Below are positions 9,794 to 29,455 of a stretch of 64,000 nucleotides of DNA, piece by piece. Position 1 is the stretch's first letter. Every line of letters starts with the position of its first letter. The DNA is from an uncultured delta proteobacterium (GTDB lineage: Bacteria; Desulfobacterota; Desulfomonilia; UBA1062), in NCBI GenBank assembly GCA_963785235.1, contig CAWAUM010000001.1:608001-672000 (forward strand). Direction: 5' to 3'. The translations under genes were made by a program, and so were the position numbers. The notes beneath the pieces were generated by a model. It was not told the DNA's origin, did not search any database, and worked only from the letters and a program-made list of their open reading frames with translations.

Positions 9794-9802
9794 GTTGTGG
9801 TC

Positions 9803-10396: not shown

Positions 10397-10423
10397 AAGA
10401 GAATCCTCCTTACGTTTCTTTCA

Positions 10424-10880
10424 CTATGGCTTCTTGACTTCACCGAAGACATATTTGCTGATGAGTTCTGCGATATCCAGGGGCGGTTGCGTTTCGGTAA
10501 TGATACCTCCTGGTTTAAGGAGTGCACTTCCGCCTCCAGGGTCTATGCTGACATCCATATCGCCGATCAGTCCTTCCGTTTTAATGGAAGCGATGGCATT
10601 ATCATATATATTGATACCCTCATGAATCCTCAGCTCCACCACGCCCTTCTGGTTTTTCTGATCGATGGTAAGTCGCTCCACCCGTCCGACCTCAATGCCC
10701 GATATATACACGAGGCTCCCGACTCTCAGCCCTGTAACCGTGGTGAAACGGGCGAATAGGGAGTAGGAATTGTCGCCCATAAAAGGAAATGTGACCGAGC
10801 GTAACTGTCATATACCCTACGCAGAGCAGCCCGATAACGAGAAAAATGCCTACTGCAGTTTCAATCGAGTACTTTTTCAT
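10424..10880 (-). CDS. mlaD: MlaD MCE protein; frameshift near 10785
   Basis: ETAVGIF TM segment (10692-10880) then GLRVGS.V.ISGIEVGRV and IKTEGLIGD (10424-10780). Confidence 0.85.
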
Positions 10881-10884
10881 GACG

Positions 10885-12139
10885 TTACTCCTTTGTGGAA
10901 CACAGAAGCCGGCCTATTTCCTTTTGCCCTGATTTTGCAGATTTGAAGACGGCTTCTATGTCGGTATTTGGTTGTCCTTGGGCCAACCCGGCGTGGATCG
11001 CTATCTCGATACATTCCCCTGAAACTCCTCGCCTGCGGCCCCTGATGCGAATGTCACGAATTCCCTGCTCCTGGAAATCCTTGATGAAAACCTTCAGGAT
11101 TTCTTCAGCCTCAGCCAGATCCGAATAGGGCAGGACCGTCACAAACTCATTGGCACCACGGCGCGTGGAAAATCCCCCGATGGCCCCGAAATGTTTATCA
11201 ATGTATACCCCCATGGCATGTAACACCTGCTGCGCCTCCTCGTAGCCCAGGCCTTCTACAATTTCATCGAGCATATACAGGGTAAAAATCGCCACGGTAT
11301 AGGTATTCCCGATAGTTTTTTGTTTCAGCTGAGCATGATACAAGACATTGAACTGCCTCCTGGAGTGCAGGCCCGATCAATTCATCCCGCAATCCTTCCA
11401 GGCTTTGGATGACCTCGTCTTTAAAAGGGTGATCGAATTTATCAAGCTCTTCCGGAGTGCCCTGAAAAACGATTTTTCTATCATAGAGGGCAAGAATACG
11501 GTTTGAGATGAAATACACATCGGGAATCTCGTGACTGACCAGGACCGCAGTAAAACCGAATCTCTTCTGGTACTGGGCGATCATGCTCAGGATTGCATTT
11601 TTTCGGACAGGGTCCTGCCCGGAAGTGGGTTCGTCAAAAAGCACGATCTGTGGATCTATGACCAGGGAGCGTGCCAGGGCCACACGCTTCTGCATACCGC
11701 CGGAGAGTTCGGAGGGAAACTTGTCGGCCGCATCCGACAACTCTGTCTGTTCGATTCTGGCCATCACCAGAGAGTCTATTTCAGCCTTGCCCTTTCTCGT
11801 TGTTTCGCGTAGCGGCAGCGCAATATTTTCATAAACGGTCATGGAGTCGAACAGGGCATTGTCTTGAAACATGTAGCTCATCCGGGCAAAGGAGGCGATC
11901 TTCTCGTGTTTTTTCATTTCAGCAAAGGGTTTGCCCCGGAAAAGGATGGTCCCTTCATCGGGGGTGAGCAGCCCGATGATATGCTTGAGCAGGACACTCT
12001 TGCCGCCGCCGCTCAGGCCGATGATGGTCGTGACCTGCCCCTCGAAGATCTGGAGGTTTACCCCCTCGAGGACTGTTTTGGATCCGAATCTCTTTGTGAC
12101 ATCCTTGAATTCGATCAGCGGCGTATCCATGGGGCTCAC
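10885..12139 (-). CDS. mlaF: MlaF-type ABC ATPase probably fused to a degenerate GGDEF-like domain; frameshift near 11360
   Basis: Walker A GLSGGGKS, LSGGMQKR, FDEPTSGQD; then DELxGL and, in shifted frame, RRGANEFVTVLP ...I.IHAGLA fold pattern. Confidence 0.7.
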
Positions 12140-12918
12140 ATCAGAAGGGATGTCACGACATAGTCCGACACCAGAATGAGGACACAGGAGATCACGACGG
12201 CCGAGGTGGTGGCAAGCCCGACGGCCTTGGCCCCATGGCTATCCGTGCGCATATGCGCGAAATATCCCTGGTAACAGCAGACAGTGGAGACGATGAGAGC
12301 AAAAACGATTGCCTTGATGAAACCGTCGGTGATATCTTTCATGTCCAGACTGGTTTGAACACGATAAAAATAGGTTCCGGCATTCGCACCCAGAAGCAGT
12401 ACCCCGGAGATATACCCGCCGATTATGCCGATGAGATCAAACAGTGCGGTGAGCAGGGGAAAGCTGATGACTGCAGCGACAATCCTTGGACTGATGAGAT
12501 ACCCAATCGGGTTGATGCGCATGGTGTAAAGCGCGTCAATCTGCTCGGAGATACGCTGGATGCCTATCTCTGCACTGATGGCGGACCCTGCCCTGGCTGC
12601 AATCATGATGGCTGCGAGAACAGGCCCCAATTCCCTGACCAGGGTCAGGGATACAAGGACGCCGAGCGCTCCTTGAGCGCCGACTGAATTCAATGCATAA
12701 TACGTTTGGAGGCCTAGGACCATACCCGTAAACAGGCCGACGAGCATGATGATCAACATGGACCGTGCCCCGATGTAATAAATATGCTGGACAATCTTGG
12801 ATAGCTGCTTGTGCCTTATGATCTTCAGCAATGCCAGAATAAGGAAAATGCCCGCAGCACCTAAATTATCGATCCCATTGATCACCACCCTCCCGATAGC
12901 AGCAAATGGTCGCGACAA
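12136..12918 (-). CDS. mlaE: MlaE ABC permease (true start may be upstream, ~12983, with a frameshift)
   Basis: RELGPVLAAIMIAARAGSAISAEIG, EQIDAL, GAKAVGLATTSAVV. Confidence 0.9.
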   Translation of the reverse strand: MSRPFAAIGRVVINGIDNLGAAGIFLILALLKIIRHKQLSKIVQHIYYIGARSMLIIMLVGLFTGMVLGLQTYYALNSVGAQGALGVLVSLTLVRELGPVLAAIMIAARAGSAISAEIGIQRISEQIDALYTMRINPIGYLISPRIVAAVISFPLLTALFDLIGIIGGYISGVLLLGANAGTYFYRVQTSLDMKDITDGFIKAIVFALIVSTVCCYQGYFAHMRTDSHGAKAVGLATTSAVVISCVLILVSDYVVTSLLM

Positions 12919-13080: not shown

Positions 13081-13227
13081 AGCAAATGGCCTGCCAATAG
13101 CAGAAAAAAGCTCATAATATTATAATCAACCTATGAAAACGGTTAGTTAAATGAATAGGACAGCAGCTCAGAAAAATGAACTGCTTCTTTTAGCCTCCAT
13201 ATTTGGTGGACCCTCAATATGTTGAGG
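13081..13227 (-). promoter_or_regulatory. Sigma54 promoter cassette P1 (heads the mla operon)
   Basis: Minus-strand TTGGCAGGCCATTTGCT at 13081-13097; palindromes cctccatatttggtgg (13194) and cctcaatatgttgagg (13212). Confidence 0.85.
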
Positions 13228-13253
13228 GGTATCTCACGGGGGAATTCCTTCCT

Positions 13254-13568
13254 CTACTTCACGATCAGATTGTTCTTGATGGATTTAACCCCTTGGACGC
13301 TCGTTGCGATTTGGCCGGCTTTATCGACGGCCTTTTGAGAATTAACGAAGCCGCTCAATTGAACAGTGCCCTGGTAAGTTTCAACACTGATCTGGAATGA
13401 TTTGAGAAAATCATCTTCTGCAATCAGAGCTTTTATCTTGGTTGTGATGACTGAATCGTCAACGTATTCACCGGTGCTTTGATGTGTGGGTGTCGATGCA
13501 CAGCCCACAACAACGGTGATCAGCATAAGAAGCACTAAGCAGTTGATAACAATATTTCTATTTTTCAT
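13254..13568 (-). CDS. BON-domain (OsmY-like) lipoprotein
   Basis: VVGC lipobox, STGEYVDDSVITTKIK, ISVETYQGTVQLSGFV. Confidence 0.9.
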   Translation of the reverse strand: MKNRNIVINCLVLLMLITVVVGCASTPTHQSTGEYVDDSVITTKIKALIAEDDFLKSFQISVETYQGTVQLSGFVNSQKAVDKAGQIATSVQGVKSIKNNLIVK

Positions 13569-13675
13569 AGCGATTAATCCTCCTTGGTATATTTGATTGT
13601 GATATGGTTCACTACGAGAAACTTTCTCCTGACAGTATCTTTTTCATAAAATCCTTCTTTTATCCTTCTGATGCT

Positions 13676-13900
13676 TTATTTTTTTGCTCCACCTCCAATG
13701 ATGACCAGCGCAATTCCGCCCGCAAGCGCAATGCCACCCAAAATGGGTGAAAACGGGATGGTTTTCTCAGTCTCTTGGGTAGCTTGTATGGGGCCAATAT
13801 CAATGATCTTCTCGCGGCTTGTGTAAGTAATGCCCTGGTAGGCAAGGGCCATTACTCCGAAGACGATTAATACAATTCCAGTAATCATTGCCGGCTTCAT
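13676..13900 (-). CDS. DUF3185-like small membrane protein
   Basis: GIVLIVFG...YQGITYT.REKIIDIGPI.A...KTIP..PILGG pattern. Confidence 0.7.
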   Translation of the reverse strand: MKPAMITGIVLIVFGVMALAYQGITYTSREKIIDIGPIQATQETEKTIPFSPILGGIALAGGIALVIIGGGAKK

Positions 13901-13942
13901 AATAATTGATCTCCTTCCTGAACAGGTTTACGCGTCTCATCC

Positions 13943-14092
13943 CTATAATGGTCTTCGCCCCTGAATGACCCGGACCAGTACCACAACGATGGCAATGACC
14001 AGCAGGATATGTATGACCCCACCCATCGTGTAGCCACTGATCAATCCGAGAAGCCATAGAATCAAGAGAATCACACAGATGGTCCAAAGCAT
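13943..14092 (-). CDS. lmo0937/DUF5670-family small membrane protein (49 aa, not in ORF track)
   Basis: Manual translation MLWTICVILLILWLLGLISGYTMGGVIHILLVIAIVVVLVRVIQGRRPL; AGGAG RBS upstream. Confidence 0.85.
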   Translation of the reverse strand: MLWTICVILLILWLLGLISGYTMGGVIHILLVIAIVVVLVRVIQGRRPL

Positions 14093-14152
14093 GTTCGACT
14101 CCTTTCTGAGGACAGAATCTTTGCATTCAGTTTTATAGGAGAAGATTAACTG

Positions 14153-14458
14153 TTAAATCTCCTCCATACCTGCCAGATGGAGCCCGGAGTGGAACATCAT
14201 TTCATAGGGCCCTTCGAGAAGGTTCATCGCCCCCCGCAGCACCTTAAAATGTTCCGACTTCAGGTGGGTCATAAGGTTCTCCTGGGTATCCCATTCTTCA
14301 AGAAGAAAGAGTTGATTTTCATTTTCGATATTCTGGCAGATGTCGCAGTGCCGGCATCCATTCTCCATCCTTGTGGATCCGCACAGTGAAGCAATCGTCT
14401 GTGTCAACTCCAGACGCTTCTCAGAAAGGACATTCATTCGTATGATTACCAGGATCAT
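14153..14458 (-). CDS. Antibiotic biosynthesis monooxygenase (ABM) domain protein
   Basis: ENGC...EEWDTQENL..HLKSEHF pattern; ATG lies only ~5 nt past the predicted P2 start site (near leaderless). Confidence 0.8.
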   Translation of the reverse strand: MILVIIRMNVLSEKRLELTQTIASLCGSTRMENGCRHCDICQNIENENQLFLLEEWDTQENLMTHLKSEHFKVLRGAMNLLEGPYEMMFHSGLHLAGMEEI

Positions 14459-14473
14459 ATGATTGACTGTAAA

Positions 14474-14622
14474 AGCAAATGGTCTGCCAATTGCCGGAAG
14501 AAGATCATAATGTTGGAATCAATCCTTTAATAACATATTGTTAGATGAGTAAAAGAGAGCAGCAGAAAATATGAAATGCTTCGTTTAGCCTCAATATATG
14601 GTGGAACCTCAACATATTGAGG
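14474..14622 (-). promoter_or_regulatory. Sigma54 promoter cassette P2 (ABM-lmo0937-DUF3185-BON)
   Basis: TTGGCAGACCATTTGCT at 14474-14490; IHF consensus match AATCAATCCTTTA at 14517-14529; palindromes at 14589 and 14607. Confidence 0.85.
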
Positions 14623-14700
14623 GAGACTCTTCATTGTCTCAATGCTTCCCTTCAAACACCTGACTAGGTTCCGTGATAGACGCGTCCACCTGGAAGTCCA

Positions 14701-15486
14701 TTAATTTTGGCGGCTTCCTTTTTGTATGAATACCGACTGGCTGTGAACGGGGAATGCATAGGGTTCAACGGTGTTGGGTTCAGAGAAACTGCTTGTTTGA
14801 TCCTCCAAGACCTGCTTCAATTTCTCCATGGATCTCATCTGGATTTGTCTGACACGTTCTCTGCTTACCCCAAGCTGAGTGCCAATCTCCTTGAGCGTCA
14901 TGGGTGGATCCGTTAAATAACGCTGTCTTAAGACAGATGCCTCTCTTTGGGAGAGGGAATTGAAGCAGTGATTGAGCAGAGATGAAATATTGTATGATGT
15001 CTGCTTGCCATAGAACAATTTTTCCGGGTCGTTACCATCGGTAAGGAAGTCAACCCACCGGTCCTTGTCGGGGTCATCATTTCCGAGATGTTCATCCAAT
15101 GATAACAAGTTTTTGGCATGACTCAGACTCCCTGTGTTTACCTTTGCACTCTTGCTCATGAAGGACATGATGAAGGCCTTGATCCACCAGGCCGCATAGT
15201 AAATGAATGGTATTCCGCGTTCAGGATCGAAGCGGTTCAGCGCTCGTATCATCCCAAGATTCCCTTCCTGAATAATATCAAGATAATTGTGGCCGCAATA
15301 AAAATACTTCCTGCTCACCTTCACCACAAACCTGAGGTTTGCTTGTATTATTTGCTGCCCGGCAGATTCATTGCCTTCCTGATATTGTCGTGCAAGTTCA
15401 TATTCTCTTTCATTGGAAAGAGTAGGGTAGTGCTGAATTTCCCGGTAATAATGTTGAAACTCATCATAATTATTAATAGTGCCCAT
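14701..15486 (-). CDS. Sigma-70 family factor, RpoH/RpoD-like, shortened region 3
   Basis: ANLRFVVKV, DIIQEGNLG, FDPERG, YAAWWIKA, TLKEIG..LGVSRERVRQIQ. Confidence 0.85.
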   Translation of the reverse strand: MGTINNYDEFQHYYREIQHYPTLSNEREYELARQYQEGNESAGQQIIQANLRFVVKVSRKYFYCGHNYLDIIQEGNLGMIRALNRFDPERGIPFIYYAAWWIKAFIMSFMSKSAKVNTGSLSHAKNLLSLDEHLGNDDPDKDRWVDFLTDGNDPEKLFYGKQTSYNISSLLNHCFNSLSQREASVLRQRYLTDPPMTLKEIGTQLGVSRERVRQIQMRSMEKLKQVLEDQTSSFSEPNTVEPYAFPVHSQSVFIQKGSRQN

Positions 15487-15608
15487 AAATAGTCCTTCCC
15501 TCCTAAAATCACCTTGCCGTCTGGTGTGTTATCTGATGATGAACTCAAGTTAATAAATTGGCTCGCACTGCATAAGTAAATGAGCTATCTCCATTTATTC
15601 ACAGTAAT

Positions 15609-15757
15609 AGCAAAGGGCCTGCCAATAGCCGGAGGAAGATCATAAGCATGATTACATCCATTGATAACAGTTGGTTGGATGAATAATAGAGAACAGCAGG
15701 ATAACCTGAAATGATTCGTTTACCCTCAATATTTGGTGGACCCTCAACATATTGAGG
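15609..15757 (-). promoter_or_regulatory. Sigma54 promoter cassette P3 (sigma factor 1)
   Basis: TTGGCAGGCCCTTTGCT at 15609-15625; palindromes at 15724 and 15742. Confidence 0.85.
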
Positions 15758-15879
15758 GATACTTTGGATATGGGACAAGTGGATATACAAAAAATGAAGT
15801 CCATGAAGAAGTTCAGAATTCTATCGCCAAGATCATGAAGAACTATTGTTTGGACGAGAATAGAGCTTATCTTCACAGG

Positions 15880-16668
15880 TCACTGACTCACATTTGTCAG
15901 TTCATCAGTGGTAGTGCTGGTTACTGTTTCAGTAGACGAGCCTATGGTGATTACGTCCATAGTGCTCGAGACTTTCTTGACAAATCCTACATTTTTGCCA
16001 TACCAGGAAAACCATGTGGAAGTTATAATCTCGGTTCCACCAACGAATGCGATGGTCATGGTAGAGGATTCCTGAGCCTTTACGGTTTCAAAAGTTCCTG
16101 CAGGCACGGTAACAGTCTCCATACCAAGGGCCTTGAGGGTATATTCCGTGGTCCTTGTACCGACCTTTATGCCACTGGCAGAATTAAAGAGATCCTCGGT
16201 GCTGGACTTGGAGTATACCACGCCCACAGTCCAGTCAGACGGTATGACGCCCGTAGAGGAACTGCTGTCAATATTCGTAAATACTATGGAATCATCACTG
16301 ATAACGATGCTTGAAGAACTGAGATAGGTGAACACTTTGTCTACGTCGTTTAACTCGATAGTTTCCACAATATATGGTCCTGAAATAGCTCCAGAATAGC
16401 CGTATTTACTGGGAATGGTCGCTTCGTGGGCATAGCTGTAGCCTAGGGTATATTCGCTTTGAATATTTTTTTCATCCGTAGTGTCCACCATGGTTTCTTT
16501 GAAGGTATAAACCTTAGTGATATCCCTGTTGGTATAATCATCCGAATGAATGATATTTGTTTCTGCTTCACTGGACCCACCACCACCTCCTCCGCCGCAG
16601 GCAAAAAGTATTATCCATACGAGGGCTGATAGTAGGAATCTACATTTTATAAGAGAAATTCTCATCAT
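15880..16668 (-). CDS. Hypothetical lipoprotein
   Basis: LFAC-GGGGGG lipobox; ETVTVPAGTFET and WYGKNVGFVK beta-rich motif. Confidence 0.7.
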   Translation of the reverse strand: MMRISLIKCRFLLSALVWIILFACGGGGGGGSSEAETNIIHSDDYTNRDITKVYTFKETMVDTTDEKNIQSEYTLGYSYAHEATIPSKYGYSGAISGPYIVETIELNDVDKVFTYLSSSSIVISDDSIVFTNIDSSSSTGVIPSDWTVGVVYSKSSTEDLFNSASGIKVGTRTTEYTLKALGMETVTVPAGTFETVKAQESSTMTIAFVGGTEIITSTWFSWYGKNVGFVKKVSSTMDVITIGSSTETVTSTTTDELTNVSQ

Positions 16669-16720
16669 TTTTACCTCTCTCCCTTAGCCTAAACGAACCC
16701 CGGTTTCCCTTGAAGGGATA

Positions 16721-17029
16721 TCAGAATGGTGCGCTCCTGGATGTCAGCAGGTTGTTTAATCCCTTCGCATCAGTGTTTGTGAACGTGACTGCCATGCCTG
16801 TGTGGTTTTTCCAGGCAACATAACCTTCCACCCATATGACCTTGCCGAAATCTTCGGCATCGAGACTGGCCATCAGGTATCCTTTCACTTCAGGGGCATA
16901 TCCGGTCTGCACATACATGCCTCCTTTACTTATATCAATTACCCTTCCCATCTTATCGGGGTGGGCATCGTCACGGTAATCTACCCTCATGTTTACTCTT
17001 ACCCGTTTATTGTTTCTATTTTCCGACAT
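16721..17029 (-). CDS. Stand-alone PilZ domain protein
   Basis: RxxxR (RNNKR) and DxSxxG (DISKGG) c-di-GMP motifs; GMAVTF. Confidence 0.85.
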   Translation of the reverse strand: MSENRNNKRVRVNMRVDYRDDAHPDKMGRVIDISKGGMYVQTGYAPEVKGYLMASLDAEDFGKVIWVEGYVAWKNHTGMAVTFTNTDAKGLNNLLTSRSAPF

Positions 17030-17080
17030 CCTTGACCTCCCTTACTCATTGCTTGATAGTCATCATGGTAGTGCTTCAGG

Positions 17081-17230
17081 AGCAAATGGCCTGCCAACAG
17101 ACTAGGGGGGGACAGAAAAATGGATTCAATTCATAATAACAGGTAGTTAGTTGAATATGAGGAGAGCAGCAGAAAAGTGAGAATTGACTCGCTTGGCCTC
17201 AATATTTGGTAGAACCTCAATATATTGAGG
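17081..17230 (-). promoter_or_regulatory. Sigma54 promoter cassette P4 (PilZ-lipoprotein)
   Basis: TTGGCAGGCCATTTGCT at 17081-17097; site at 17197 and perfect palindrome CCTCAATATATTGAGG at 17215-17230. Confidence 0.85.
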
Positions 17231-17443
17231 GATGATTTGAAGGTATGTGTACTGTCTAATCTTTTTTTTCCTCCTGTCGGACTATGCCTAACTTATGCAT
17301 CCTCATTATTAAGGTACGCAAGTGGGGATCCAGACTCGTTGGGTCACTGTCCTTTCCTTCCATGTACCAGTTGGGTTCAGAAAGGATCTTATTAATTTTC
17401 AATAATCAATAATATGGATACTAGGCTACTATGCTGCCTGGTC

Positions 17444-17884
17444 TTATATTTTTCTCTCCAACCTTTTTTTAATATTCATAAGACCCAGATCAGCTTCTTG
17501 TCTGTTGCGTTCCATGATCACTTTCTCCACCGGCTTTCCCAATACCCGACTTGGGGTTGAATATTCTATATCCAATGCCAAGATAGTCGCATCACCATTA
17601 TTTTTGAGGTTATAAATCCATTTACTGTGTAGGCCATGTACGCCTTTGCTTTCCACGACTATCCTTTCCTCGGGGATATGTTCAATTTTTATGGATTCGC
17701 CATTAAATTTTATTTCACCTATCTTCCAAGACCATTCGTAATGAGTTCCGACCCCAGACCCGCTTACATCCTTAACCTCAATCATGTTCGTCAACCAATC
17801 AGGTTCATTCCAGGGATTATCAATATAAGCAAAAACCTTATTAACTGGCGCTTTGATCTCAATACTCTTGTGAATCCTGTGCAT
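17444..17884 (-). CDS. SRPBCC/polyketide cyclase-like protein
   Basis: SIEIKAPVNKVFAYI.NP...PDW, GVGTHY, C-terminal helix. Confidence 0.8.
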   Translation of the reverse strand: MHRIHKSIEIKAPVNKVFAYIDNPWNEPDWLTNMIEVKDVSGSGVGTHYEWSWKIGEIKFNGESIKIEHIPEERIVVESKGVHGLHSKWIYNLKNNGDATILALDIEYSTPSRVLGKPVEKVIMERNRQEADLGLMNIKKRLERKI

Positions 17885-17932
17885 ATGATATCCCTCCTTC
17901 TTTCGTTTCTAGGGTGCCAACCTGTGTTCATT

Positions 17933-17972
17933 AAAAAAGAAGCAGGGCTATTACTTGACTAACCCTGCTTCT
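17933..17972 (-). terminator. Intrinsic terminator after PEP-CTERM gene
   Basis: agaagcaggg/ccctgcttct stem followed by a T-run on the minus strand. Confidence 0.65.
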
Positions 17973-17985
17973 CCATACTCATCCT

Positions 17986-18414
17986 TTAGACAGTCTTGAT
18001 TTTTATCTTCTTTCCGAGTCCTGCAAGCCCGATTAGACCCGTTCCCAAAAGAAGCATGGTTGCAGGCTCAGGTACAGGCGCAGGATTATCGTTTTCATTC
18101 CCGTTCTGTTCAAGCCCGTAACTGCCTGTAGGACCAAGGTCAGCGATATTGAGATTACTCGGGAGTGAACCATTGAAAACAGAACTTCTCAGAACATTCG
18201 TCAGAACCCCTACCTCGGACCTAAGCGAGGTGCTGCTCACATCAAGGGCAGGCCAAGCCTGAGAGAGGTAGTTATTGACGAGGTTCTGATGCCGGGTGAT
18301 GGTCAGGCCCGTGTAGTAAAAGGCCCCATCACCAAGATTGATGATGCAGGCTCCAGCCTGAAAAGCGAAACCTAAAACCATCACGATTGACAGGATTAGT
18401 TTTGATAGTTTCAT
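17986..18414 (-). CDS. PEP-CTERM sorting domain protein
   Basis: Signal peptide; VPEPATMLLLGTGLIGLAGLG plus basic tail. Confidence 0.9.
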   Translation of the reverse strand: MKLSKLILSIVMVLGFAFQAGACIINLGDGAFYYTGLTITRHQNLVNNYLSQAWPALDVSSTSLRSEVGVLTNVLRSSVFNGSLPSNLNIADLGPTGSYGLEQNGNENDNPAPVPEPATMLLLGTGLIGLAGLGKKIKIKTV

Positions 18415-18454
18415 TTTTTTTGAACTCCTTTGTTTCCAGTACTTTTAAACTTTT

Positions 18455-18492
18455 AAAAAATGAGGGAGGGTTTATACAAGCCCCCTCCCTCA
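18455..18492 (-). terminator. Terminator-like hairpin just upstream of the PEP-CTERM gene
   Basis: tgagggaggg (18461-18470) / ccctccctca (18483-18492) with minus-strand T6. Confidence 0.6.
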
Positions 18493-18536
18493 AAAGGTAT
18501 GGGGGTTTTCGTTTTGGTTACTGTTTTTACGCATTT

Positions 18537-18971
18537 TTAGGGGGGATATTCTTGATGCAGTGTTGTGACTTTACTGTCAGCCTGTGTCTTGACCTTATAG
18601 ACAACCTTAATTCTTGAAGAGCTCGATATGACTGCATTGCTTTGGGCATCGTACTCCTGCTTTGTTATCCCTCTGACCCTGTCTATGACTCGATAATGAT
18701 TTGTCTGACTGCAAAATGGGCAGGTAACATCAATTGCAATAAGGTCATGACTCAAGTCGATCCCTTCCTTTTGCAGGTAGGACATCCCTGTTGAGTAATT
18801 GTCCTGGGACAGGAAAGACTCAACCGGAATGCTTTTATTGCATCCGGGGTAGAGACATTTGAAGATGTTGTAGTCGATAGTCCTTCCTAAACCATACATA
18901 ATAATCTCCTTTGGGAGAGTCCTTATTAATTGTATCTTCATTCTCAACGTGTGCTTAATAAGAACTCTCAA
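18537..18971 (-). CDS. Hypothetical protein, possible zinc ribbon (start may be at MYGL)
   Basis: CLYPGC and CPFC cysteine pairs. Confidence 0.5.
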   Translation of the reverse strand: MRVLIKHTLRMKIQLIRTLPKEIIMYGLGRTIDYNIFKCLYPGCNKSIPVESFLSQDNYSTGMSYLQKEGIDLSHDLIAIDVTCPFCSQTNHYRVIDRVRGITKQEYDAQSNAVISSSSRIKVVYKVKTQADSKVTTLHQEYPP

Positions 18972-18983
18972 ACACTGAAAAAC

Positions 18984-19619
18984 TTAATTATCATATTCCT
19001 TATTCTGTTTATTTTTCTGACCTTTTTCAGGTTTTCCATGCTGAGCTTTATCTTGTTGTTGTGGCTGTGAGTGCTGTGATCGGACATTCCCGGATTGTGG
19101 TCGAGCATGCTGTTGTGGTCGATTATGGGGCTTCAAACCTTGGACACCCCAGGTATTTTGCTTCTCCCAATGTCTGTTCTTTTCCCAGTTGCTCCAGTTC
19201 CGTTGGACTTGCTCGTGGGGTATTCGCTGGTGGTTCCACCGATGTCCTGCCCAACGATGGTCCCTGTAGTTATTCCTCCAACCTGACGGTACTCTTCTAT
19301 AAAAGGAGGGTACCCTTTGATAGTGGGTCCAACCTGAGTCATAGTGGTGTGAGCGATACCAGTGTCCTTGCCACGGACGCCACCACCAGCCATTGTAGAA
19401 AAAGATGTCCACATCTACGTCAGGGGCAGCATAGACATCCGTCTCAGGTATGACTACCACCTCTAGAGGTCCTGAAGATATGATGAGTGGAGGCAGAGAA
19501 ATGCTAATGCCTACATCTACCGTTGCCATCGCTGAAATAGGAAATAAAAGTACCAACGCTAAAAGAATTGCTCCGAAAATTATCTTTTTCATTTTGTAGC
19601 CCGCTTTATCCATGCCCAA
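18984..19619 (-). CDS. Secreted Trp/His/Arg-rich protein (YXWGXW-like)
   Basis: Signal peptide, VDVGISISLPP, FFYNGWWWRPWQGHWYRS, low-complexity tail. Confidence 0.7.
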   Translation of the reverse strand: MGMDKAGYKMKKIIFGAILLALVLLFPISAMATVDVGISISLPPLIISSGPLEVVVIPETDVYAAPDVDVDIFFYNGWWWRPWQGHWYRSHHYDSGWTHYQRVPSFYRRVPSGWRNNYRDHRWAGHRWNHQRIPHEQVQRNWSNWEKNRHWEKQNTWGVQGLKPHNRPQQHARPQSGNVRSQHSQPQQQDKAQHGKPEKGQKNKQNKEYDN

Positions 19620-19662
19620 TTTAACTCCATGTAACCTTGGCGTTGTAGTAATACTCTCCCTG

Positions 19663-20049
19663 TCAGAATACGTTCGTGCTGTTGCATATGCATCTTACTT
19701 CAACCCCGTTTTCAATCCTGGCAAGATTCTTCACGACGGTGTAATCCAATCCGGCTATTTCTCGTGCATTTCTTGCAGTCTTAGGAGGATTAGACTTGAA
19801 TACCGGATTATGCCACGGAGATGGTTCCTTCCCGGGATATGGTAGGTGAGTGGGTGGAACCCGTAGACCCAGCCTGCATAAGGATGCCTCACTCACTGTA
19901 GACCCATACGATGGATGATCTGCTGCAGTAATAGTGAAGAGCGCAAAGAAATCTCCCGATAAAGTTTCCTGCCACCCAATGAAATTCGCATCTGAATTCG
20001 AACCAGGTGTATTCATGTGTTCAGGCATGTTAGCCTCCGTTTGCATCAA
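19663..20049 (-). CDS. Hypothetical protein
   Basis: ORF directly behind P5; GGAGG RBS before the ATG of MPEH; no recognised family. Confidence 0.45.
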   Translation of the reverse strand: MMQTEANMPEHMNTPGSNSDANFIGWQETLSGDFFALFTITAADHPSYGSTVSEASLCRLGLRVPPTHLPYPGKEPSPWHNPVFKSNPPKTARNAREIAGLDYTVVKNLARIENGVEVRCICNSTNVF

Positions 20050-20077
20050 GTAATCCTAGTGGTGTAGGTGAGTAAAA

Positions 20078-20226
20078 AGCAAATAGCCTGCCAATAGCCG
20101 AAGGAAGATCAATAATATAGATTAAACAATTAATTACAAATTGTTAGGCGAAGAAGAGAGAGCCGCAGGAAAGTATGAAATGATCCATTTGACCTCAATA
20201 TTTGGTGGTTCCTCAGCATATTGAGG
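20078..20226 (-). promoter_or_regulatory. Sigma54 promoter cassette P5
   Basis: TTGGCAGGCTATTTGCT at 20078-20094; palindromes at 20193 and 20211. Confidence 0.85.
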
Positions 20227-20268
20227 GATAGGGCAATGGCCCCCCTGGAATCAATACCAAGTGATTTT

Positions 20269-21303
20269 TCATTTTCTTAGTTTCCATTTTCTTGTTAGTA
20301 GTTGGGCTGTTGCTATTTGGGAAGATGTCATTTTTTGAACAACCATATCCCTTATCTTGGCAGCTTCCTCATCTCCTTGTGCAGCAGCAAGGTTGGTCCA
20401 TATGTGCGCCCGAACAAAATCTCTTGGTACACCTTGGCCATATGCATACATAACCCCAAGGTGGTACTGGGCACTGGAATTGCCCTGATCGGCCGCTTTT
20501 CTGCACCACCTCATTGCCTCGGCATAGTCCTGTGGAACGCCTTGGCCATTTGCATACATAGCCCCAAGGTTGTACTGGGCACCGGCATGCCCCTGCTCGG
20601 CCGCCTTTCTGTACCACCTCGCAGCCTCGGTATCGTCTTGTATTACGCCTTGGCCATCTGCATACATAACCCCAAGGTTGTACTGAGCTCCGGCATTCCC
20701 CTGATCAGCCGCTTTCCTGAACCACCTCACCGCTTCTGAATAGTCCTGTACTACACCTTGTCCATTAAGATACATCCACCCAAGGGTGTACTGGGCATCG
20801 GCATCGCCCTGGTCAGCCGCCTTTCTATGCCACCTCATCGCCTCCATATAGTCCTGTGGTACACCTTGGCCATGTGCATACATACCCCCAAGGTTGTACT
20901 GGGCCTCGGCACGTCCCTGATCAGCCGCTTTCCAGTACCACCTGACCGCCTGGGCATAGTCCTGTGGAACACCTAGGCCATGTGCATACATGACCCCAAG
21001 ATTGTTTTGGGCACCGGCATGCCCCTGAACGGCCGCCTCCCTGTACCACCTCAATGCCTCGTCATCGTCTTTCGGAACACTTTGGCCATTAAAATACAAC
21101 CCTCCAAGGCTGTACTGGGCTCCGGCATCGCCTTTTTCTGCCCGTTTCATCAATTCATGTAATGGGGCTTTGTAGTCCCCACTATCGAAAGATTCATGGT
21201 CATCCCCTCTGGATATGTTAGGGAATATCAGGAGAAGCAAAGTTGTAAGAATAATTGCCATTTTCATGGAATTTTCCTCATTAAGAAGGCAGCATCTGGT
21301 CAA
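20269..21303 (-). CDS. Sel1-like repeat protein, secreted (likely start MKMAII)
   Basis: About seven 36-aa repeats AQYNLG.MY..GQGV.QDY.EA.RWYRKAADQG, visible as 108-bp DNA repeats. Confidence 0.95.
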   Translation of the reverse strand: MTRCCLLNEENSMKMAIILTTLLLLIFPNISRGDDHESFDSGDYKAPLHELMKRAEKGDAGAQYSLGGLYFNGQSVPKDDDEALRWYREAAVQGHAGAQNNLGVMYAHGLGVPQDYAQAVRWYWKAADQGRAEAQYNLGGMYAHGQGVPQDYMEAMRWHRKAADQGDADAQYTLGWMYLNGQGVVQDYSEAVRWFRKAADQGNAGAQYNLGVMYADGQGVIQDDTEAARWYRKAAEQGHAGAQYNLGAMYANGQGVPQDYAEAMRWCRKAADQGNSSAQYHLGVMYAYGQGVPRDFVRAHIWTNLAAAQGDEEAAKIRDMVVQKMTSSQIATAQLLTRKWKLRK

Positions 21304-22144
21304 TGGAAGAAATGAGGGCCTTCTTCAGTTTGACCTTTGATTTATTCTCGATCTGCCGTACCCGTTCCTTGGATATGGCATACTGCCTTCCAAGGTCTTC
21401 CAATGTCGCAGGGGTTTCGGTCATGATACGATGCTGCGTGATATAACGTTCTCTTGGTGTGAGATTGTCCATGGCCTGGTCGATCTCCTTTTTCATAAAG
21501 GAGGTCTGCTGCGATTCAATGATACGGTCTTCGGGGCTCAACGTCGTATCAGCAAGAGAATCCAGGAAGGTGGTATTACTCCCGTATGTTATAGGGTTGT
21601 CCAGGGACTGGTCCCTGTTTGTCAGCCTCAATATGATCTCCTCGATCTGTTGGGGGTCGGCATTGAGGCGTAAGGAGAGGGCCTGGGACTGCTCGCTGAT
21701 ATCTTCACCTACGACTTCCTCTTCAGCCGTAATACGGTTGAGTCCATAAAACAGTTGTTTCTGCAGTCTGGTCGTACCGAGCTTGACCTGGGAGAAGAAC
21801 CGTAAGATATAATCATGGATCATTGCCTTGATCCACCATATTGCATAGGTCATGAGCCGATACCCTTTGTGCGGATTGAACTTCTTCACTGCGATCACCA
21901 GCCCTATAATCCCTTCCTGAATTGTATCTTCCAGGGGCAGGCCATACCCGGCATAATCCATGGCGATCCACACTACGTTTTTGAGATTGGCAGTTATGAG
22001 GCGCTCCGCAGCATCAAGATCGCCTTGATCCTTCAGAAGGACAGCGAATTTATATTCTACCTCTTTGGTGAGATGGGGAACGTGTTTGAACCGATCTATA
22101 AGTTCACCAACAGCATGATCGCGTATGACAGGATAAGGCATCAT
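21281..22144 (-). CDS. RpoH (sigma32)-like sigma factor
   Basis: YAGYGLPLEDTIQEG, KKFNPHKGYRLMTYAIWWIKAMIHDYILR, RpoH-box-like VKLGTTRLQKQLFYGL, ISKERVRQIE. Confidence 0.9.
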   Translation of the reverse strand: MMPYPVIRDHAVGELIDRFKHVPHLTKEVEYKFAVLLKDQGDLDAAERLITANLKNVVWIAMDYAGYGLPLEDTIQEGIIGLVIAVKKFNPHKGYRLMTYAIWWIKAMIHDYILRFFSQVKLGTTRLQKQLFYGLNRITAEEEVVGEDISEQSQALSLRLNADPQQIEEIILRLTNRDQSLDNPITYGSNTTFLDSLADTTLSPEDRIIESQQTSFMKKEIDQAMDNLTPRERYITQHRIMTETPATLEDLGRQYAISKERVRQIENKSKVKLKKALISSIDQMLPS

Positions 22145-22353
22145 GAACGCATCCTTGTGAAGCCGGCGGATTCTGCAGGTCTGCTGGGATTAATGGAAAC
22201 GGTTGACTGAAGGGCTCGAGCAATTTTTTCTGCAACGATACGGGGCGACATATCTTTATCAGGATTGAAGACATCACTTCTTTGCTGTCCCCACCCCGGA
22301 TCCAGGAGTTCGGTCCTGATAACATCAAGAATATCTAACAGGTCTACGCTCAT
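22141..22353 (-). CDS. Small hypothetical protein, translationally coupled to sigma factor 2
   Basis: ATGA overlap with the sigma gene; first ORF after P6. Confidence 0.5.
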   Translation of the reverse strand: MSVDLLDILDVIRTELLDPGWGQQRSDVFNPDKDMSPRIVAEKIARALQSTVSINPSRPAESAGFTRMRS

Positions 22354-22439
22354 TTTTTTTGTATAACCTTATCCCTTTTTATTGGTGCTCACGGTGTCAA
22401 AAATAACTACTCGATAGTCATCATGACAGCTACTGTAAT

Positions 22440-22587
22440 AGCAAAGGGCCTGCCACTAGCCGAAGGAAGATCCGAAATCGGAATCGATCATTGATAACAT
22501 GTGGTTAGATAAAGCGGATAGGGAGCCAGTAAGGTGTGAAATGATTCATTCAGCCTCAATATTTGGTGGTACCTCAACATGTGGAGG
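22440..22587 (-). promoter_or_regulatory. Sigma54 promoter cassette P6 (ORF-sigma factor 2-Sel1)
   Basis: GTGGCAGGCCCTTTGCT at 22440-22456; palindromes at 22554 and 22572. Confidence 0.85.
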
Positions 22588-22820
22588 GATTCTTTGAAGG
22601 GAGATGGGTATTCTCATCCGGGTTTTTTGTCTCCGACCGGACTACATCAAGCCGGCAAGAATGCCGAACCACATGAGAGTGGAGTACCACGGTATGGATT
22701 CAAATAAAAACATAGTAAGGAACCCCCTGTTTCCCGGTTTAACAAAGGGCCCAAGAGCGCTACGCATGGCGCTTCGCTCCTGGGCCACTTCGTCCGTCAG
22801 ATATGATTCTCTTTCCCAGC

Positions 22821-23768
22821 CTACTGCATGGGTGTTTGCGCGTCGCGTTGGATGATGATTTCGACGCGACGATTGTTGGCGCGACCCTCGGGGCTGGCGT
22901 TATCAGCAATTGGGGTTCCCTCGCCAAGCCCATGGGCCTTGATACGATCGGCCTGGTAGCCTCGCTCCACGAGATAGTTTCGAACTGCGTCTGCCCGGCG
23001 CTGCGACAGGTCGAGGTTGTAGCTGTCAGAGCCCTGTGAGTCGGTGTGTCCCTCGATGATGAGGTTGCGCTCACGGGTTGTGAGCAGTACATCGCTCACT
23101 TGGTCGAGTCGCGACCGCGCCGAGGGCAACAAGGTCGACTTGCCGGATGCGAAAAGCACACTCCCGGATAGGGTGATGATTATTCCGCGCGGGTCCTCCT
23201 TGACCGCGGCCAGCTTAGCCAGGGCTTCAGCCATTCGTTGCTCGGCATCGTTCTGCGCCGCCAGCGCTTCAGCCGCTCGTTGCTCGGCATCGGTCCGCGC
23301 CTTTTGCTCGTCGGAAAGCTGCTCTGCCGTCTTTTCGCCGCTGAGCTCAGAGGCCGCAAGCGCCGTCTGTGTATCGCTCAGGTCCTGCTTCGTCTTTGTA
23401 ACAATCTTGCCCTGCGTCGTTTGATAATCTTTACTCGATTGAGTCTGGCTCTTTTTCTCCATAGCGATGGAGGCCGTTGCTTCAGCTAACTCTGCCTTGC
23501 GCTGGGCGACATAGGCGAGGTCTCGCGTATGATACGAGTCGGGATTCTTCTGGAAGGATTGTTCCGCCTTGTCGAGCGCTTGTTTCGCCACATGCAACTC
23601 CGCAGGAGCGGCCTGGGCCGCAACGCCAGTGCTTGCGCGCTGGTATGCTCCGCGGGCGTTGACGAGCTCCTTCGGGGCGGTGGACGCACAGCCGGCGAAG
23701 AGCGTGACGACCGTGATGAGGATCAGATATTGTATCGTTTTCATATAATGCTCCTTTCTTTGGGTCAT
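22821..23768 (-). CDS. DUF4398 + OmpA-family lipoprotein
   Basis: FAGC lipobox, coiled coil, VLFASGKSTL, EGHTDS, LSQRRADAV, NRRVEI. Confidence 0.9.
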   Translation of the reverse strand: MTQRKEHYMKTIQYLILITVVTLFAGCASTAPKELVNARGAYQRASTGVAAQAAPAELHVAKQALDKAEQSFQKNPDSYHTRDLAYVAQRKAELAEATASIAMEKKSQTQSSKDYQTTQGKIVTKTKQDLSDTQTALAASELSGEKTAEQLSDEQKARTDAEQRAAEALAAQNDAEQRMAEALAKLAAVKEDPRGIIITLSGSVLFASGKSTLLPSARSRLDQVSDVLLTTRERNLIIEGHTDSQGSDSYNLDLSQRRADAVRNYLVERGYQADRIKAHGLGEGTPIADNASPEGRANNRRVEIIIQRDAQTPMQ

Positions 23769-24130
23769 GGGTTGTCTTGCCGGAGTTTGCGCACACGCTC
23801 CAATGCTGCCCGGGCCTCCGATTTTTCGGCATCCTCGTGGGAGAGTGCGACAGCCAGCTCGGCATCGGCTTCGGACCGCAACAGCATAGACGCGGCCTCA
23901 TCCTTCTCGCCTTTCGCAGACAGCTTCTGGGCGAGTTCCAGTTCTTCTTTTGCCATTTGCAGATGAAGCGAGGCTTGCGGTACCTTGGCCGCCCCGACCT
24001 CCTCTGCGGCACGGATCCCCGACGTAGAAGCCTCGGAGCGCAGCGGGGCGTTTGCGCATCCCGCAGTGATGAGAGTGGCCATGACGGCCATGGAGAACAT
24101 CATAATTACGATCTTGGATAGGTGTCTCAT
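23765..24130 (-). CDS. DUF4398 lipoprotein
   Basis: TAGC lipobox; IRAAEEVGA, AKEELELA, EADAELA. Confidence 0.8.
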   Translation of the reverse strand: MRHLSKIVIMMFSMAVMATLITAGCANAPLRSEASTSGIRAAEEVGAAKVPQASLHLQMAKEELELAQKLSAKGEKDEAASMLLRSEADAELAVALSHEDAEKSEARAALERVRKLRQDNP

Positions 24131-24263
24131 TGAATCCTCCTTTAGCTACTGATTTTCACTCATCCGAATTCAGTTGTTACGGATTGAGTCGATAGTGACG
24201 TATTCAAAAAGATGTTCCTTTGTTAGACGAATTCATTTTGAGTTCTCGTGCACGATAAGCACT

Positions 24264-24416
24264 TCATATCCGCCCCAGCAGCAGCAGAATGATCAAAATC
24301 AGAACAATCAATCCGAGTCCTCCGCTGGGATAGTATCCCCAGCTCTTACTGTGAGGCCAGGTTGGCAGTGCTCCGACCAAGATGAGAATCAAAATGACGA
24401 TCAGTATCGTACCCAT
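24264..24416 (-). CDS. DUF3309-family small membrane protein (50 aa, not in ORF track)
   Basis: Manual translation MGTILIVILILILVGALPTWPHSKSWGYYPSGGLGLIVLILIILLLLGRI; AGGAG RBS. Confidence 0.9.
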   Translation of the reverse strand: MGTILIVILILILVGALPTWPHSKSWGYYPSGGLGLIVLILIILLLLGRI

Positions 24417-24495
24417 GTTTTTCTCCTTTTATAGCGTGAGCTATTGACCTTACCTCTGCCCTTCAACCTTCAAGTTGATTTTTAACAAGTTTAAG

Positions 24496-24643
24496 AGCAA
24501 ATGGCCTGCCAATAGCCAAAGAAGATCAGATAAATGCAATCAGTCATTAATAACTGATGGTTAGATGAAAAGGAGAGGGTGGTATAACGTGTACAAATGA
24601 TCCGTTGGGCCTCCGTATTTGGTGGAGCCTCAACATATTGAGG
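24496..24643 (-). promoter_or_regulatory. Sigma54 promoter cassette P7 (DUF3309-DUF4398-OmpA)
   Basis: TTGGCAGGCCATTTGCT at 24496-24512; palindromes at 24610 and 24628, just past the activator stop codon. Confidence 0.85.
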
Positions 24644-24668
24644 GATACTTGGTTGAAAGGTAGACAGC

Positions 24669-26649
<1,981 letters not shown>

Positions 26650-26659
26650 GTTTTCGCAC

Positions 26660-27004
26660 TCATGAATTCCTGGGTTTCAGATCGATGCCTACAAGAAACT
26701 TTTCCGTATCCGACATGTCGCCGATGAGCCTCCGCAGGGGCAGGGGGAGTTTCTTGATGAGCGTTGGGGCGGCAACAATCTGCTCTCCCTTGGCAAGATT
26801 GGGCTGCTGGTAGATGTCTATCACCTCGAGTTCGTAGCTCCCGGCCAGGTGTTTATCACAGAGTTTCTGGACATTGGCGATCGCCTGGGTCGACTTTGGG
26901 GTCATACCGGTAACATACAGCCGGAGAATGTACTTTGACGGGTCTCTCTTGGTTGCCGCTTTTTCGAATTCCGCAGTGCTCGTTTTCACTCTTTTCATAT
27001 CCAT
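26660..27004 (-). CDS. kaiB: KaiB-family protein (copy 2)
   Basis: [26 protein letters not shown]...[22 protein letters not shown]. Confidence 0.9.
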
Positions 27005-27039: not shown

Positions 27040-27366
27040 TCAGACAGGACGAATGTCGAGTCCCACCAGCACACGTTCTGTGTTGGCCAGATCACCGATA
27101 ATCTTTTTAATCGGTTCAGGAAGCTTCCTCACCAGTGTCGGTATGGCAATAATCTGGTCCCCTTTAGCAAGCTGGGGGTTCTTTAAAAGGTCTATCACCT
27201 CAATGCGGTATTTCCCGGCGAGGTGCTCTTCGCAGATCTTCTTTAAATTAGCAAAGGCCGTTATGGATTTCTGGGTCTGACCGGCTACATATAACCGGAG
27301 GTTCCAGATTTCATCCGTAGCAGCGGTCTTTGATTTCTTCCCTTTTTCTGGTGAGACAGTTTTCAC
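27040..27366 (-). CDS. kaiB: KaiB-family protein (copy 1)
   Basis: [48 protein letters not shown]. Confidence 0.92.
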
Positions 27367-29116: not shown

Positions 29117-29455
29117 CTCCTGGCATTATTACTAAGAATGTTATTATAGCAAAAAGCCATTTTCTGGCAATAAAAATAATTCAGTAATATCAGAGTGATA
29201 TTTCCCTGCATCAAAGATAAATCTTCCCTCGGTCTCTTCAAGGATCCACCTGGAAGGTTTCATATGATCACTATCGTATCCGTGCAATGAACCACCTCCA
29301 CAAGCCGGCATGCATAAGACTGCTCAGGGTCGTTATAAAAGCAAACATGACGAGAAATAGTGCAAGCCATTTCAGGTTCAGGAGAGAAATGCTTTGAAGG
29401 TCAAATTTCACCGTCTACTCCTTTGGGGTAAATATATATGCATAAGGTGACAGAG

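Follow-up and report, generated by a model that had tools for sequence, protein, structure and literature searches.

The DNA examined here, hereafter the window, is a 64,000-nucleotide stretch of the genome of an uncultured delta proteobacterium (assembly GCA_963785235.1, contig CAWAUM010000001.1, positions 608,001 to 672,000 of the forward strand), and it carries seven copies of a promoter cassette. Each copy is very probably a self-contained sigma-54 (RpoN) enhancer-promoter unit that serves one family of bacterial enhancer-binding proteins (bEBPs), and the regulon formed by these units would integrate KaiBC with PAS-domain inputs. The features that we computed are the architecture, copy number, orientation and conservation of the cassette, its adjacency to activator genes and its phyletic co-occurrence with them. 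A sigma-54 enhancer-promoter had already been proposed in the original prediction from this DNA, and the proposal finds support in silico in a near-invariant GG-N10-GC element, the presence of rpoN, adjacent activators with a GAFTGA motif, the orientation of the copies and the co-occurrence of cassette and activator.

Architecture of the cassettes

A repeat search of the window returned two seven-member families, of 72 nt and 55 nt, at the positions where seven copies had been predicted, and pattern searches recovered the same seven, all on the minus strand. Aligned with MAFFT, the seven stretches of about 190 nt have a mean column identity of 76%. In the minus-strand (gene) direction, the order is CCCTCAATATGTTGAGG (upstream activating sequence 1, UAS1), a 2-nt gap, CCACCAAATATTGAGG (UAS2), 97-100 nt of AT-rich sequence and TGGCAGGCCATTTGCT. 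UAS1 is the strong site, with the palindrome CCTCAA-N4-TTGAGG, and UAS2 is its weaker, degenerate partner. The sequence TGGCAGGCCATTTGCT, or a one-base variant of it, forms a GG-N10-GC sigma-54 box in all seven copies. The promoter box TGGCAG(G/A)C(C/T)(A/C)TTTGCT has seven matches in the window at no more than two mismatches (0.05 expected from shuffled sequences), and the 34-bp double site made up of UAS1 and UAS2 has seven at no more than three mismatches (0.00 expected).

Cassette P1 occupies 13081-13227, with the sigma-54 box at 13081-13096 and the double site at 13194-13227 (UAS2 at 13194-13209, UAS1 at 13212-13227). In P2 (14474-14622), the box is at 14474-14489 and the double site at 14589-14622 (UAS2 at 14589-14604, UAS1 at 14607-14622); transcription is predicted to start at about 14463. 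An exact match for integration host factor (IHF) had been claimed in P2, and near 14518 AATCAATCCTTTA does fit the consensus WATCAANNNNTTR. P3 (15609-15757) has its box at 15609-15624 and its double site at 15724-15757 (UAS2 at 15724-15739, UAS1 at 15742-15757). The box of P4 (17081-17230) lies at 17081-17096 and its double site at 17197-17230 (UAS2 at 17197-17212, UAS1 at 17215-17230); its UAS1, CCTCAATATATTGAGG, is a perfect palindrome, as had been noted earlier. P5 (20078-20226) has the box at 20078-20093 and the double site at 20193-20226 (UAS2 at 20193-20208, UAS1 at 20211-20226), and P6 (22440-22587) has them at 22440-22455 and 22554-22587 (UAS2 at 22554-22569, UAS1 at 22572-22587). P7 (24496-24643), which lies 25 nt past the stop codon of an activator gene, has its box at 24496-24511 and its double site at 24610-24643 (UAS2 at 24610-24625, UAS1 at 24628-24643). 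A 14-nt inverted repeat (86% complementary, 24455-24468 and 24651-24664) flanks P7 only.

The weak site had been placed 113-116 bp from the promoter box. Measured on the plus strand, the distances are 113, 115, 115, 116, 115, 114 and 114 bp for P1 to P7. The start-to-start distance between the two sites is exactly 18 bp in every one of the seven copies of the window and of the 11 of the genome. On the opposite strand, the sigma-54 box read in reverse gives CTGCCA, and CTGCCA-16/17-(C/A)ATAAT, a weak sigma-70-like sequence (9 of 12 matches), is found in three of the seven cassettes (13091-13118, 14484-14511 and 20088-20116) and points towards the enhancer. A divergent plus-strand sigma-70 promoter was considered and rejected, as such promoters are not enriched in the region (28 found, 23.0 ± 4.8 expected).

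Copies in the rest of the genome

The predicted count of seven copies holds for the window but not for the genome. Using an nhmmer profile built from the seven copies, we have identified exactly 11 full-length copies in the 3.9-Mb assembly, with E values from 1.9e-51 to 1.2e-26; the next matches have E values of at least 0.25. The four copies outside the window are on contigs C1 (369312-369502, minus strand), C2 (135356-135547 and 139034-139226, both plus strand) and C5 (128190-128380, plus strand). A broader profile, made from 132 cassettes, recovers the same 11. All 11 copies have GG-N10-GC, with the GG 132-135 bp from where UAS1 starts, and a gap of 97-100 bp to the TGGC. All are intergenic and co-directional with the next gene. 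The alignment and the scan of genome and relatives that the original prediction had proposed have thus been carried out, and they returned these 11 genome copies and, as described below, cassettes in 71 of 80 related loci.

Activators adjacent to the cassettes

The genome has one rpoN gene (a single PF04552 match above the cut-off, 208.8 bits, contig C11) and eight genes of the HU/IHF family. Three paralogous PAS/AAA+/HTH_8 activators lie directly upstream of three cassette copies. The activator in the window (24669-26649, minus strand) consists of two PAS domains, a sigma-54 AAA+ domain with GAFTGA and HTH_8, and is directly upstream of P7. The other two, of 553 aa each (C1:369508-371166 and C2:133691-135349; L001:8506-10167 and L002:1192-2853 in locus coordinates), are upstream of the C1 copy and of the C2 copy that starts near 135 kb. 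They are 99% identical (550 of 553 residues), and the sequence that they share extends to the start of the cassette, which points to a recent duplication of activator together with cassette. The window activator is 82% identical to these paralogues over the C-terminal 198 aa, including the helix-turn-helix (HTH). The three activators share the DNA-binding domain, with HTH sequences that are nearly identical, and differ in their sensors. Four other bEBP loci listed in this genome are on contigs C7 and C13, both of which are without a cassette. No NCBIfam equivalog was matched by the activator family.

Association of activator and cassette in relatives

Species-representative genomes were scanned with the 553-aa activator as the query, which yielded 80 related loci. 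Nearly all of them are from metagenome-assembled genomes (MAGs) labelled Deltaproteobacteria, Thermodesulfobacteriota, Syntrophales/Syntrophaceae, Smithellaceae, Desulfatiglandales, Desulfomonilia, Desulfobacteraceae or Candidatus Electronema. At least one cassette is present in 71 of these 80 loci, which were fetched by activator homology and not by the cassette. Among the 83 activator copies in them, 64 have UAS1 no more than 200 nt past the last aligned activator codon, and in 51 the distance is 27-39 nt. The double site (no more than three mismatches) occurs in five of 40 genomes related at the level of family or class, and an activator orthologue is directly beside the double site in four genomes (G003, G005, G011 and G024). 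Another genome, G004, has the activator and no match to the strict pattern, yet a cassette detectable by profile follows right after the gene.

We then used an even sample of 401 genomes of the phylum, in which the motif was defined as a double site with no more than two mismatches and the activator as a match to its C-terminus at E <= 1e-80. The motif is present in 24 genomes and the activator in 22; 18 have both and 373 have neither. The motif is thus found in 18 of the 22 activator-positive genomes and in 6 of the 379 others, and a reversed-pattern control had no matches in the 401 genomes. As the relatives are not independent, no P value is attached to this co-occurrence.

Conservation and geometry

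The cassette profile has 139 matches at E <= 1e-3 in the 80 related loci, 121 of which cover at least 140 profile columns. Together with the 11 copies of the genome itself, these make up a set of 132 cassettes. Among the 108 that pass the strict pattern, the distance from UAS1 to the GG is 130-136 bp in 107, the odd row at 92 bp being a mis-pick; it is 132-134 bp in 97 of them (16 at 132, 38 at 133 and 43 at 134). Selection on the geometry, as suggested in the original prediction, is well in line with this narrow range of spacing.

Over the 132 cassettes, the GG and GC doublets are the most conserved columns. Three further blocks are conserved, namely AAACGAATCATTTCA just past UAS2, TCTAAC..TGTTATTAA, and, about 15 nt upstream of the promoter, a GAT. 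The earlier statement that motifs and spacing are kept therefore stands, and its second half, that the sequence between the motifs has simply drifted, does not, given these blocks and a mean identity of about 59-64% even across genomes. The AAACGAATCATTTCA block occupies profile columns of about 57-72 (15692-15707 in P3), in the same 18-bp register as UAS1 and UAS2. It was considered as a third activator site and rejected, as only 5 of its 16 positions match the site consensus. The spacer identity is 0.64 within the genome, compared with a mean of 0.59 and a best value of 0.78 to the copies of other genomes. The 11 copies resemble each other little more than they resemble the copies of other genomes, which indicates that the cassette family is old and under purifying selection, without recent amplification.

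The Kai operon upstream of the activator

In the window, the activator gene is preceded by kaiC and two kaiB genes on the same strand. KaiC (27368-29116, minus strand) has 582 aa, a double domain and a long C-terminal tail (NF006799, 739 bits; cut-off 408). The two KaiB-family proteins (27040-27366 and 26660-27004, both minus strand) score 101.5 and 94.5 bits, below the cut-off of 110, and both are kept in synteny. The best PDB match of KaiC is 8dba (E = 8e-196), with an alignment that extends into the C-terminal tail; 8DBA is described, in the part of the source available, as the KaiA-independent KaiC of Rhodobacter sphaeroides with a C-terminal coiled-coil extension (PMC10076222). The window kaiC is preceded by a strong sigma-70-like sequence, TTGCCA-16-TATAAT with TG (29143-29170, minus strand, 11 of 12 matches). 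A further BON-domain gene (29456-29773, minus strand) lies upstream of this promoter.

The operon is retained in relatives. kaiC-kaiB-kaiB is directly upstream of the activator in 23 of the 80 loci (23 of 23 testable), with KaiC 60-92% identical, and both kaiB genes are conserved. The window-type N-terminal 190 aa of the activator are found in 26 loci, that is, all 23 with kaiC and three in which the contig ends less than 1.5 kb upstream. kaiC itself has a cassette in front of it in two loci (L021 and L074). Seven other genomes of the phylum sample encode a KaiC that is at least 86% identical. Four of these (G175, G187, G291 and G321) have activator and motif, and G177 has the motif. The remaining two, G218 and G423, have neither, and their 12.5-kb loci contain no cassette. 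There, the gene after kaiC-kaiB-kaiB encodes a protein in which HisKA_3-HATPase is fused to an N-terminal part of ~300 aa that shares 70-72% identity with the activator N-terminus, and this kinase (L100, G218:C37, 7388-9487, and L101, G423:C9, 6747-9329, both minus strand) is followed by a LuxR-type response regulator. By its domain make-up, this kinase is a natural swap of the output domain. The kinase fusion in genomes without the cassette suggests that the PAS module tracks KaiBC, and that the cassette tracks the sigma-54/HTH output. A complex prediction for KaiB1 and KaiB2 with the N-terminal 190 aa of the activator gave a score of 0.17 (mark 0.32) and bears neither way. With three activators that share a DNA-binding domain and differ in their sensors, one of them encoded in a kaiC-kaiB-kaiB-bEBP operon, a timer or energy signal from KaiBC would come together with other PAS inputs in the control of this regulon.

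Proposed mechanism and other explanations

We infer binding, sigma-54 dependence, looping, control by Kai and a role in stress along the following lines. Dimers of the bEBP, with its PAS sensor, GAFTGA AAA+ domain and Fis-type HTH, would bind CCTCAA-N4-TTGAGG centred near -151, and also the weaker CCACCAAATATTGAGG 18 bp downstream, near -133. The bound dimers would assemble into an active ring. The AT-rich tract near -75 to -55 could be bent by IHF or HU, or by its own shape, so that the ring meets the closed RNA polymerase-sigma-54 complex at TGGCAGGCCATTTGCT. ATP hydrolysis would then open the promoter, and transcription would start about 12 nt past the GC, running leftwards on the minus strand in the window.

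Several observations weigh against such enhancer-promoter units. The 18 bp from centre to centre of the two sites is a non-integral number of helical turns, and cooperation of two dimers is hard to explain at this distance. The AAACGAATCATTTCA block and the high conservation of the entire spacer are not explained by the simple model. The IHF consensus WATCAANNNNTTR is matched exactly in 3 of the 132 cassettes, P2 among them, and at no more than one mismatch in 62 of the 132, compared with 14.6% of shuffled sequences, in both orientations; the matches cluster about 35-50 nt upstream of the TGGC, and an IHF bend site in the spacer is plausible, not established. As many as 24 of the 132 cassettes fail the strict double-site pattern, and among the 12 of these that were inspected, 10 differ by one base in a GAGG and two show an offset of 19 bp. 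No cassette lies within 200 nt of 19 of the 83 activator copies, of which at least one is at a contig end and several are more distant activators. In the sample of 401 genomes, six have the motif only and four the activator only. The first open reading frame (ORF) after the cassette has no Pfam family in 40 of 115 cases in relatives, and some of these ORFs may not be genes. Finally, the window activator is read as two frames, 25246-26649 and 24669-25286. This split is due to one extra base in the A-run at about 25268-25271. Four public DNA runs, each from a different study, gave contig pieces at depths of ~4-7 that omit one base at 25268/25269, and one of the pieces is otherwise identical over 104 nt. 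These pieces without the extra base indicate that the frameshift is probably an assembly error or private to the strain, and the gene is probably intact in nature.

Two of these observations would also fit a different reading, namely that the sites are real but are bound by a regulator other than the neighbouring bEBP family, the adjacency being due to co-inheritance. The additional conserved block and the highly conserved spacer suggest additional binding proteins, and six motif-positive genomes have no activator match at E <= 1e-80. We regard another regulator as improbable. The motif is concentrated in activator-positive genomes (18 of 22, against 6 of 379 others), UAS1 lies at a fixed 27-39 nt past the activator gene in 51 of 83 copies, and the genomes that have a histidine kinase instead of the bEBP after kaiBC show neither motif nor cassette. 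Moreover, a palindromic 16-bp site suits a dimer with a Fis-type HTH, as in the bEBP family.

The cassettes might alternatively be a non-autonomous mobile element, similar to a miniature inverted-repeat transposable element, which carries an outward promoter and has spread by transposition. Eleven dispersed copies that are alike over their full length, the patchy phyletic distribution (24 of 401 genomes and 17 of 254 genera) and the inverted repeat in the flanks of P7 alone could be taken in this sense. Such an origin is nevertheless very unlikely. Terminal inverted repeats are present in one of the seven copies, and the other repeat pairs are the two UAS sites themselves and a single 10-nt pair within P4. 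The 11 copies all lie between genes and are aimed at the next gene, the identities of the spacers within and across genomes argue against a recent burst, and the position past the activator stop codon is fixed over many lineages. The original prediction had named random orientation as the mark of such an element; the orientation is not random, and no terminal inverted repeat is common to the copies.

Equally little speaks for the ~170-nt unit as a structured RNA, either a small RNA, which had also been named beforehand, or a cis-acting leader or trailer made by read-through: UAS1 is able to form a 7-bp hairpin and the stretch from the upstream genes to the cassettes has no terminator-like site, so that a read-through RNA would contain the unit, but the whole window has no Rfam match at the gathering score (no tRNA was matched in it either), the folds of the seven copies on both strands have z-scores of -2.3 to +0.8 with nothing shared beyond the palindrome, the conservation is one of sequence and not of pairing, and the sigma-54 box, located at the 3' end of the unit, is directed outwards.

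Predicted target genes and near-leaderless mRNAs

We return to the sigma-54 enhancer-promoter units and to the genes that they would control. All the units downstream of P1 to P7 are on the minus strand. The P1 unit (8834-12918) encodes MlaE, an ABC ATPase, MlaD, MlaC and MlaA, an outer-membrane lipid asymmetry system. The P2 unit (13254-14458) encodes an ABM protein (14153-14458), DUF5670 (13943-14092), a 74-aa membrane ORF and BON (13254-13568). A sigma-70-family factor, group-3-like and below all specific cut-offs, makes up the P3 unit (14701-15486), and PilZ (16721-17029) and a DUF3108-like protein (15880-16668) make up the P4 unit (15880-17029). The P5 unit (17444-20049) has three ORFs without a family, a PEP-CTERM protein (17986-18414) and an SRPBCC/polyketide-cyclase-like protein (17444-17884). 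In the P6 unit (20269-22353), a 70-aa ORF without a family is followed by an RpoH-like sigma factor (21281-22144; NF005143, 250.4 bits, cut-off 241) and a Sel1-repeat protein (20269-21303). Six or more tandem 108-bp units at 20320-21159 correspond to the Sel1 repeats of this 344-aa protein. The P7 unit (22821-24416) comprises DUF3309 (24264-24416), DUF4398 (23765-24130) and DUF4398-OmpA (22821-23768). The DUF4398-OmpA gene contains a 42-bp tandem duplication (88% identical, 23218-23301).

The predicted targets outside the window are a PAS hybrid kinase adjoining a CheB/CheR fusion; an ABM gene with CsbD, a YflT/ActD-like protein and DUF748 after it; ABM and CsbD, which the ORF list gives as a single frame, with a triple-BON protein next; and a PKD protein with a GDSL lipase. 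The 115 ORFs that come next after cassettes in relatives were assigned to Pfam families. ABM is the most frequent family (37), followed by CsbD (5) and BON (4), and DUF4398, LTXXQ, DUF5670, DUF932 and His_Phos_1 are found twice each. OmpA, DUF3309 and KaiC are found once each, 15 ORFs belong to other families and 40 to none.

By annotation, the target set resembles a regulon for general or envelope stress, and it appears to be kept in many uncultured relatives of sulfate-reducing bacteria. Two sigma factors (one of them RpoH-like), PilZ and the hybrid kinase with CheB/CheR among the targets would extend this stress programme into a downstream cascade. In the genome, which is 93% complete, no RpoS equivalog was found above the NCBIfam cut-off; the best match to the RpoS model (293 bits) is a 574-aa open frame and, by its length, is probably the primary sigma factor.

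The distance between the -12 C and the ATG is 12-14 nt in 33 of the 37 ABM genes of relatives; eight of these 33 rows, for which a pattern artefact gave a value of 0, were counted by eye at 13 nt from the upstream sequence. Of the remaining four, two have mis-called starts (upstream TTG), one has 7 nt and one has no nearby box. In the genome itself, the distance is 12 nt at the two ABM copies on contig C2 and 16 nt at P2 (14458-14475). The Pfam match to ABM begins at residue 1 in nearly all relatives, and the first ABM codons (MILVIIRMKV...) show synonymous variation. A gap of 12-14 nt is too short for a Shine-Dalgarno sequence, so the ABM mRNAs should be leaderless or nearly so, conserved as such and made from the predicted sigma-54 promoter. 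With so short a gap, transcription could only start at the sigma-54 position, which gives indirect support to the predicted start site. A Shine-Dalgarno leader is present at the target genes other than ABM. If confirmed, a leaderless ABM mRNA at a sigma-54 promoter would be an unusual coupling of initiation mechanisms.

Comparison with known systems

As a general type, an enhancer placed upstream of a sigma-54 promoter, together with an AT-rich bend, is textbook knowledge. Tandem activator sites combined with an IHF bend are known from the classical enhancer-promoters NtrC-glnAp2, NifA-nifH, XylR-Pu and PspF-pspA. Within the same phylum, OrpR and IHF act at the orp operons of Desulfovibrio vulgaris, according to the available parts of the reports (PMC3897727, PMC8359166). 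The cassette shares with these systems GG-N10-GC, inverted repeats more than 100 bp upstream, an AT-rich IHF-like tract and a nearby GAFTGA AAA+ activator with a Fis-type HTH. It differs from them in several respects. We found no published example of its site sequence, CCTCAA-N4-TTGAGG with a degenerate partner at 18 bp. The ~170-bp unit is conserved with its spacer and fixed in length to a few bp in MAGs labelled as several orders. It is reused up to 11 times per genome, and its commonest target, ABM, starts 12-14 nt past the -12 C, so that its mRNA would have no leader or almost none. With a spacing that is almost always 18 bp and an enhancer-promoter distance kept within a few bp across the labelled orders, the cassette is a natural experiment on enhancer geometry, and the predicted regulon is open to simple binding and reporter assays.

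Searches of the literature for KaiC with sigma-54 or bEBPs, and for sigma-54 with CsbD, BON or Desulfo-, returned nothing relevant; the motif strings returned primer-type matches only and the promoter string none. The parts of PMC5520375 that were available do not contain the words NtrC, enhancer or synteny, and PMC12288465 and PMC10278575 treat KaiBC in general terms only, as far as their available parts go. The site sequence, the activator family, the regulon, the rigid conservation of the cassette, the leaderless first gene and the coupling of Kai to sigma-54 were not found in the literature searched.

General stress regulons are known under sigma-B in Bacillus, RpoS in E. coli and EcfG/PhyR in alphaproteobacteria. 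The cassette targets resemble them in CsbD, YflT-like, BON/OsmY-like and OmpA-like proteins, small membrane proteins and secondary sigma factors. Unlike these regulons, the cassette regulon is predicted to be under sigma-54 and an enhancer-binding protein, and not under a dedicated sigma-70-family factor. If true, this would be a sigma-54-based general stress response in a lineage where no RpoS was found. The sigma-54 regulome of D. vulgaris Hildenborough, as far as the available text describes it, includes many bEBPs, PAS one-component bEBPs and stress-related regulons (PMC4641369); the genome studied here likewise has several bEBPs, PAS one-component bEBPs and stress-related targets. The main text of PMC4641369, taken apart from its supplements, contains neither 'TTGAGG' nor 'CCTCAA'.

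In the purple bacteria Rhodopseudomonas palustris and R. sphaeroides, kaiC and kaiB form an operon with a PAS/histidine-kinase gene, and the targets of the kinase are given as unknown in the part of the source available (PMC4794148). The kinase loci of G218 and G423 are of this operon type, to judge from that part. The window is similar in that kaiB follows kaiC, a PAS protein follows kaiB, and KaiC is closest to 8dba. It differs in having two kaiB genes instead of one, and an output domain of sigma-54 AAA+ and HTH_8 in place of a histidine kinase. The targets and the output route of KaiBC outside cyanobacteria are an open question, which the Kai-linked cassettes address. We put forward, tentatively and as somewhat less than an even prospect, that the cassettes are the read-out of a KaiBC timer (an hourglass or energy sensor) in non-photosynthetic anaerobes. 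A portable PAS-PAS module of ~300 aa, fused in some lineages to a histidine kinase, would receive the KaiBC state, and in this lineage its fusion to a sigma-54 activator would directly switch on a general stress regulon of up to 11 promoters, including leaderless ABM and an RpoH-like cascade. If true, this would be the first sequence-defined transcriptional regulon for a non-cyanobacterial Kai system. Where the output protein is itself a DNA-binding activator with easily recognised sites, the whole regulon can be read from sequence in dozens of uncultured genomes, and it is in this set of target promoters, readable from the genome, that the system of the window departs from the kai operon of purple bacteria.

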